Shown here one piece after another: positions 104 to 159 of a stretch of DNA of 8,037 nucleotides. Numbering within the stretch: the first letter of the stretch is position 1; each line of letters begins with the position of its first letter. Source of the stretch: a virus (taxonomy: Duplodnaviria > Heunggongvirae > Uroviricota > Caudoviricetes); the IMG/VR virus record IMGVR_UViG_2531839237_000019. The stretch is one strand, 5' to 3'. The notes below the pieces were generated by a model. It worked only from the letters and a program-made list of their open reading frames with translations, ran no database searches and was not told the origin of the DNA. The position numbers and the translations under genes were made by a program.

Positions 104-159
104 AAAAAGGGCGGAGAGCAGTCATGGGCAAAACAGATGCCGCCAAACGTCACCAGAAA
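104..159 (-). ncRNA. dicF: DicF-like small RNA with intrinsic terminator at its 3' end
   Basis: Reverse complement of 101-159 reads UUUCUGGUGACGUUUGGCGGCAUCUGUUUUGCCCAUGACUGCUCUCCGCCCUUUUUAAA. The 5' ~20 nt match the DicF 5' end as I recall it, and a GGCGG...CCGCC hairpin plus U-run forms the terminator. It sits at the distal end of the leftward operon that begins beside the dicA homologue, as dicF does in Qin. Exact ends cannot be set without RNA data. Confidence 0.8.

Follow-up and report, generated by a model that had tools for sequence, protein, structure and literature searches.

Positions 104-159 of the 8,037-nt stretch of DNA analysed here (hereafter, the window) hold a minus-strand dicF gene, which belongs to a lambdoid prophage of the O157:H7 type that carries paa. 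Judged from alignments, the allele found there is not a drifted K-12 DicF but a fine-scale mosaic built from two alleles common in nature. The mosaic is confined to one end of the contig, where the assembly runs into a multi-copy prophage repeat, and the resulting blend of states is predicted to abolish the terminator hairpin. We favor, with a probability of about 0.6, the interpretation that the mosaic arose in assembly, as a collapsed-repeat consensus, and does not reflect biology.

Identity and setting of the dicF locus

An Rfam scan of the whole window with cmscan returned only two matches at or above the gathering score, sok and DicF. The DicF match (RF00039) lies on the minus strand at 158..109, covers the full model (1-52) and scores 49.4 bits (E = 1.1e-08), passing, though marginally, the gathering score of 48; under the same covariance model, the K-12 allele scores 76.7 bits and the O157-type allele 43.5 bits. 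This match bears out the DicF homologue that a sequence-only reading of the window had placed at 104-159. The span assigned here to the gene (159..109) includes the first U of the annotated K-12 RNA, 1 nt beyond the cmscan match, and corresponds to a 51-nt minus-strand RNA, UUUCUGGUGACGUUUGGCGGCAUCUGUUUUGCCCAUGACUGCUCUCCGCCC, followed by UUUUU; the RNA string quoted in the earlier reading is correct, being the reverse complement of the plus strand.

DicF acts together with Hfq by base-pairing to mRNAs, and its 5' end is generated by RNase E cleavage of the ydfC-dicF-dicB transcript, its 3' end by an intrinsic terminator. Published work describes the 53-nt DicF as arising by intrinsic termination (PMC5069750, PMC9438474). 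The window allele contains the DicF 5' seed UUUCUGGUGACGUUUGG, which pairs with xylR-type targets, and the alignments reveal that the sequence flanking the mature 5' end, AUCAAUUUUCUGG, is unaltered. The gene occupies the operon setting of a lambdoid-prophage immunity region, with ydfC upstream and, in relatives, dicB downstream. In the window, dicB falls off the contig, and it starts 66 nt past the window's left end in two syntenic loci (L002 and L224). The gene for the DicA-like repressor shares its strand with the ydfC-dicF genes (Table 1). The low E-value and the syntenic context make a chance match implausible, and by score, seed and synteny the locus belongs to the known DicF family and is no new kind of element.

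Table 1. Features of the window relevant to the dicF locus (RNA nucleotide n corresponds to window position 160-n).
Feature	Position	Strand	Basis
dicF homologue, 51 nt	109..159	-	RF00039 and alignment to K-12 dicF
U5 tail of the Rho-independent terminator	104..108	-	Read directly; same in K-12 and O157-type alleles
5' single-stranded seed, RNA nt 1-20	140..159	-	Identical to K-12 by alignment
Terminator stem-loop region	109..144	-	Holds every difference from K-12
Conserved ydfC 3'-UTR/precursor region, upstream of dicF	160..262	-	Alignments
ydfC, source transcript of DicF	1135..1353	-	ORF list; syntenic gene annotated ydfC (WP_001171903.1) in NZ_CP032793
DicA-like HTH_3 repressor, 135 aa	1989..2396	-	Pfam PF01381; RefSeq annotation in syntenic genome
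Cro/DicC-like regulator, 75 aa, divergent from DicA-like gene	2473..2700	+	Pfam PF14549 (P22_Cro); RefSeq annotation
Terminal repeat stretch	1..388		Multi-copy prophage repeat; all 10 differences from backbone prophage

Several other elements were observed in and near the window. The sok antitoxin RNA (RF01794, 103.9 bits; 7276-7425, plus strand) overlaps the start of a gene encoding a 51-aa Hok/Gef-family toxin (7423-7578, plus strand), and the two form a type I toxin-antitoxin pair in the prophage. The prophage cargo includes paa (6329-7087, plus strand), encoding an AcfC-family adhesin associated with attaching-effacing E. coli; in the syntenic genome, a frameshifted fimbrial-protein pseudogene lies just upstream of paa, at approximately window 5634-6167. 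Sub-threshold matches to STnc100 (RF02076, gathering score 47) span the dicF-dicB spacer and the start of dicB at L001:4433-4642 (plus strand, 34.4 bits) and L002:2915-3120 (minus strand, 32.5 bits), the window counterpart being cut off by the contig end. Within the overlap of the DnaT-like and replication-P genes, window 4097-4356 carries 19 substitutions with respect to NZ_CP032793, of which only 6 persist with respect to L224, a cluster consistent with ordinary recombination in the replication module. Toward the right end, window 7600-8037 has 100% matches in complete genomes at a different prophage site (529 records at 99% identity or higher), and the backbone prophage shares only 86-88% identity with positions 7725-8037. 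Near hok/sok, the contig hence changes prophage type, through either a natural mosaic or a second repeat-mediated join.

A mosaic allele at the contig end

Relative to the K-12 reference (NC_000913.3 1649382-1649434; b1574, in the Qin cryptic prophage), the window allele shows the changes U21C, A25U, A31G, delU33, G36A and delG47 (K-12 numbering). These four substitutions and two 1-nt deletions all fall within the terminator stem-loop, with RNA nt 1-20, the CCGCCC end and the U5 tail identical to K-12. The alignment therefore agrees with the sequence-only reading both on the match to K-12 at the 5' end and terminator tail and on the presence of several central differences, and the RNA is not identical to K-12 DicF. 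Taking the allele as a K-12 variant, on the other hand, did not hold up: the 36-nt stem-loop of the window, GGCGGCATCTGTTTTGCCCATGACTGCTCTCCGCCC, joins a 5' arm and loop of O157 type to a 3' arm of K-12 type (109..144), a mosaic of two natural alleles that points to an assembly chimera at the contig end.

The O157-type allele has the stem-loop GGCGGCAUCUGUUUGCCCAUGAACUGAUGUCCGCCC, with its 3' part ending in CTGATGTCCGCCC. It is the best match in 288 complete-genome records, and its sequence is invariant among 22 copies, which come from complete genomes, E. albertii and IMG/VR. Ten sites distinguish it from the K-12 allele, yet both alleles form a strong hairpin. At these sites, the window allele carries the O157-type state in six cases (5' arm, loop and missing G) and the K-12 state in the remaining four (U-run length, single A and the C residues at RNA nt 42 and 44), with no private states. 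The exact 36-nt stem-loop was absent from 7,526 dicF places in 5,426 complete E. coli genomes, where the best match reached 95.4% identity over 86 nt, and exact-match scans did not find it in IMG/VR, GTDB species representatives or JGI metagenomes. Matches outside Escherichia to the 20-mer TGGTGACGTTTGGCGGCATC were mostly unrelated sequences, and an IMG/VR search with the 3' arm resembling the Rfam consensus, ACTGATCTGCCGCCC, yielded unrelated environmental contigs only. Three of the matches to the 20-mer, L131, L143 and L154 (the last of which is, by its title, a soil Proteobacteria MAG), have a K-12-type dicF with a C at nt 21.

The O157-type locus in L002 (3109-3158, minus strand), equivalent to window 109-158, scores below the Rfam gathering score, and among the complete-genome records listed no feature is annotated at the match. 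A 96-kb IMG/VR contig (2654588054_000006), the source of L010 and L034, harbors an O157-type copy as well as a K-type copy (GUGGCUG variant), and shows both dicF allele classes together in a single genome region.

The admixture of allele states extends beyond the stem-loop and is bounded by the end of a repeat. The window is the entire draft contig AOEB01000080.1 (8,037 bp; assembly GCA_000335255.2), with which it is byte-identical, and dicF lies 109 nt from the contig end. Over positions 1-7672, the window is 99.6-99.75% identical to the paa-carrying lambdoid prophage of O157:H7 genomes. The closest backbone is that of L224, a 99-kb contig of GCA_013763865.2; the window departs from it at 10 places in positions 1-384 and at none in 385-4334, and there are likewise zero differences from NZ_CP032793 in 385-4096. 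Of the four indels with respect to the backbone, three alter homopolymer length and lie inside the first 250 nt. An independent Logan short-read contig (L227) starts at window position 389, that is, it breaks at 388/389. In complete E. coli genomes, positions 1-420 match 10,073 places with a maximum identity of 98.1%, and the closest strains listed have 5-7 copies each. For positions 430-850, the best-matching complete genomes (594 records at 99% identity or higher) reach 100% identity and have 1-2 copies each. Over its left 388 nt, the contig runs into a multi-copy repeat, and the anomaly is confined to that part.

We analyzed this stretch by pairwise alignment, since a multiple-alignment version was confounded by indel placement in the loop. 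Two parents account for it completely. Parent A is the O-type backbone and parent B a natural K-type paralogue haplotype (L012, L028, L038). All 10 differences from parent A are parent B states, including those at 234 and 252, which mismatch K-12 itself and are the sole changes in the conserved region upstream of dicF (160..262). Conversely, the 13 sites unlike parent B all carry the parent A state, so that the two sets of differences are disjoint and 23 of 23 sites are explained. Along the window, the states follow the order A|BB|AAA|BB|AA|B|AAA|BBB|AAA|BB|A, amounting to 10 switches in ~390 nt. When any of 66 natural haplotypes were allowed as donors, at least 8 switches were still required, with no private positions. 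Among the natural haplotypes themselves, 59 of the 66 are explained with three switches or fewer, and five IMG/VR haplotypes need 6-10 switches, each of them also with 2-25 private changes. Random sequencing errors were rejected as a source of the differences, each of which is the state of a natural paralogue, and a single recombination breakpoint was rejected given the number of switches needed.

Both parents are found, at 100% identity, within the same complete O157:H7 genomes (among them PV15-279, EDL933, 86-24 and JEONG-1266); in PV15-279, parent A is located at 2.029 Mb and parent B at 2.127 Mb. Parent A is represented, for instance, by NZ_AP018488.1 2028950-2029368 and parent B by NZ_AP018488.1 2127101-2127521. 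A sister assembly (AOED) combines K-type states at positions 47/49 with an O-type dicF and thus provides a natural, coarse mosaic of the region.

Predicted hairpin loss and the origin of the mosaic

ViennaRNA ensemble folding, with z-scores computed against shuffles, assigned the window RNA a minimum free energy of -10.4 kcal/mol in a non-terminator fold (z = -0.36), versus -15.9 kcal/mol for K-12 and -17.3 kcal/mol for the O157-type allele. The energies of the hairpin alone are -9.5, -15.9 and -17.3 kcal/mol, respectively. The closing stem GGCGG/CCGCC has a probability of 0.07-0.08 in the window, compared to 0.98-0.99 in K-12 and 0.97-1.00 in the O157-type allele, which folds into a 9-bp stem with one bulge and a 4-bp inner stem. 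The arms of the window allele are unpaired in the prediction because its O-type 5' arm (CAUC) opposes a K-type 3' arm (CUCU), and the alternative fold lowers the predicted accessibility of the seed, with a mean unpaired probability for nt 1-15 of 0.55 in the window and 0.92 in both K-12 and the O157-type allele. As written, the window has a U5 tail and no predicted G+C-rich hairpin to form a Rho-independent terminator; both natural alleles combine such a hairpin with the U-run. Enumeration of all 16 combinations of four K/O sites revealed that positions 118 and 116 alone explain the loss of the hairpin: setting both to the O state gives a stem probability of 0.93-0.97 at any homopolymer lengths. 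The window states at 116 and 118 are probably not genuine. A simple terminator/promoter scan gave no call for the dicF terminator in either the window or the intact O157-type locus, and is uninformative here because its rule requires an uninterrupted stem and a loop of 3-8 nt. Hfq-dependent sRNAs reportedly need a strong terminator hairpin (Morita et al. 2017, cited in PMC9438474), and since intrinsic termination is how DicF is produced, the sequence as it stands would serve poorly as a DicF gene.

These observations fit best, in our assessment, with a column-wise consensus that combined reads from two paralogous dicF loci at the point where the contig runs into the repeat. If so, the real locus would be an ordinary O157-type dicF, with the K-type dicF residing elsewhere in the genome, in another prophage. 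This real allele would have a strong, compensated hairpin and a K-12-identical 5' seed fitting xylR, and would not have the K-12 determinants for ftsZ, pykA and manX pairing. The blend breaks a hairpin that both parents keep (-10.4 vs. -15.9 and -17.3 kcal/mol), which supports a chimeric origin. Such an origin calls for an overlap/consensus or polishing step, because a pure de Bruijn assembler cannot emit k-mers missing from the reads. Counting against it are the coarse natural mosaics exemplified by AOED, the five IMG/VR haplotypes with 6-10 switches, and the known exchange of sequence between O157 prophage paralogues.

In an alternative that we regard as unlikely, if deserving of serious attention, the allele is real and was produced within the genome by patchy gene conversion, the partners being the O157-type dicF locus and a K-12-type paralogue from a different prophage. 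In favor of this alternative, the closest genomes contain both donor haplotypes, every state is natural, coarser mosaics of the region exist in nature and the structural consequence is clear, the strong-hairpin requirement of Hfq-dependent sRNAs being established knowledge. Unpaired arms would lead to inefficient termination, with less of the short Hfq-binding DicF and more read-through into dicB, and the locus would be a decaying or attenuated copy in which a weakened terminator is a likelier phenotype than a retargeted sRNA. A genuine mosaic of this kind, generated by short-patch exchange, with the seed kept, the hairpin lost, read-through into dicB and an accidental 7-nt anti-Shine-Dalgarno match to ftsZ, is possible but doubtful; if true, it would be a natural example of prophage sRNA paralogues reshuffling target-binding and terminator modules. 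The pattern of the switches, however, is unlike that of a conversion tract, with at least 8-10 of them in 384 nt and some just 1-5 nt apart. Moreover, the anomalies extend no further than the boundary of the repeat in which a short contig ends, and the allele is unseen at all the dicF places surveyed in complete genomes and in three other collections.

The sequence-only reading had proposed that the central changes could shift the target range, and the comparison of ftsZ, xylR and pykA that it called for was addressed here with a duplex scan using 22-nt windows, loops of up to 3 nt and added opening energies over positions -100..+60 of the K-12 targets. Unrestricted duplexfold was dropped in favor of this windowed scan, as its duplexes were unrealistically long and had large loops. 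Published mutational work maps the pairing of ftsZ, pykA and manX to the central/3' part of DicF and that of xylR to its 5' end (PMC5069750, PMC5861419), the K-12-mode pairing with ftsZ being documented in PMC5069750. With K-12 DicF, the scan recovered the published sites: nt 25-36 with the ftsZ Shine-Dalgarno (SD) sequence (-12..-1), nt 26-42 with the pykA SD and nt 6-15 with xylR. It also paired nt 36-53 with 18 nt of the manX coding region, probably the published G145-C162 site, which has the same length and end bases at a numbering offset of ~5 nt.

For the window allele, the K-12-mode ftsZ and pykA duplexes are predicted to be lost because the loop ACUCCG became GCCCAU. Contiguous pairs with manX fall from 13 to 9, and the total energy changes from -12.7 to -6.7 kcal/mol. 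The 10-bp xylR duplex (+10..+19) is unchanged, its hybridisation energy being -16.4 kcal/mol in the window, K-12 and O157-type alleles alike, with total energies of -13.6 for the window and -15.2 for K-12. The K-12-mode complementarity to ftsZ is missing from the window and from the O157-type allele, which in silico is without the K-12 ftsZ, pykA and manX determinants and retains only 5'-seed interactions (xylR). As an in silico prediction, it is reasonable that the central changes would alter the target range. The proposed shift thus finds support in the predicted changes in pairing, with ftsZ and pykA lost, manX weaker and xylR kept, but the loss of the terminator is the first-order effect and retargeting a secondary one. 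Both features that the window lacks, a terminator hairpin and K-12-mode complementarity to ftsZ, map to a segment that is probably not genuine.

The scan further identified a new 7-bp match between CUCUCCG (nt 42-48) of the window allele and the ftsZ SD sequence CGGAGAG (-12..-6), with a total energy of -6.6 kcal/mol; the validated K-12 site gives -4.9 kcal/mol, and the O157-type allele has no site. One could accordingly envisage a functional DicF variant with a shifted target range, in which this anti-SD element replaces the K-12 loop for ftsZ binding; the complementarity to -12..-6 is perfect, manX pairing is partly retained and xylR pairing retained. We nonetheless consider such a variant very improbable. 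A 7-bp match to a purine-rich SD easily arises by chance, CUCUCCG sits in the would-be 3' arm of the terminator with no compensatory change to keep the hairpin, and the allele, which is a singleton, gives no indication of selection or spread; the arguments regarding the contig end hold for this variant too. Least credible of all is a surviving intermediate between K-12-type and O157-type dicF, with 5' arm and loop changed and 3'-arm compensation still to come, since, even though all 10 variable stem-loop sites are K or O and setting only 116 and 118 to the O state regains the hairpin, a stem-loop intermediate does not predict the K/O interleaving that runs on into the flanks across 384 nt, none of the collections searched contains a relative of such a lineage and the O-type 3' arm GAUGUCCGCCC also occurs in other lambdoid/Stx phages, suggestive of modular exchange as opposed to stepwise mutation.

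This case carries little biological weight: DicF itself, the multiple copies in EHEC and the modular 5'/3' pairing have all been described before. The case does advise caution, in that sRNA "variants" located a few hundred bases from the end of a draft contig, in multi-copy prophage repeats, can be consensus chimeras and are unfit for target-range or evolutionary analyses without read-level support. As a by-product, the analysis brought to light a widespread O157-type dicF allele that lies below the Rfam gathering score and has no annotation in the RefSeq records examined.

Comparison with known DicF systems

DicF, its origin in the ydfC-dicF-dicB transcript, its dual 5'/3' pairing regions and the four EHEC copies are already in the literature (PMC5069750, PMC5861419, PMC9438474, PMC7873438). 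The window gene resembles K-12 DicF of the Qin prophage in RNA nt 1-20, the CCGCCC-U5 end and the sequence just 5' of the RNA, all identical, and in its location downstream of ydfC and upstream of dicB. It differs from it in the loop, where the K-12 ACUCCG that pairs with the ftsZ and pykA SD sequences is replaced by GCCCAU, in the absence of a predicted stable terminator hairpin and in its Rfam score (49.4 vs. 76.7 bits).

The O157-type paralogue shares with the window the prophage backbone, the 5' arm, most of the loop, the absent G before CCGCCC and the downstream flank. Four edits lead from its sequence to that of the window: U3 to U4, AA to A, A to C at window 118 and G to C at window 116, the last two of which abolish GAUG, the partner of CAUC. 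The paralogue folds at -17.3 kcal/mol with a 9-bp stem, whereas the window allele, a singleton, folds otherwise. A passage in PMC7873438, citing Melson & Kendall 2019, reports that dicF has expanded to four copies in EHEC strains, and we infer that the O157-type paralogue is one of the four copies to which that passage refers.

A third point of comparison is provided by the lambdoid/Stx phages POCJ13, 75/02 Stx, PhiR5_2 and vB_EcoS-666R9, with copies of the O-type terminator observed at L221:151-207 (POCJ13), L222:151-213 (vB_EcoS-666R9) and L223:151-207 (PhiR5_2). These phages carry the O-type 3' arm, tail and downstream sequence (GAUGUCCGCCC-U5-AAAGUGAAUUUU) without the DicF 5' seed, their 5' part being different. 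The window's own 3' arm is of the K-12 type (CUGCUCU), as opposed to the GAUGU of the phage modules. The sequences of the phage copies suggest that the DicF seed and terminator may be exchanged as modules.
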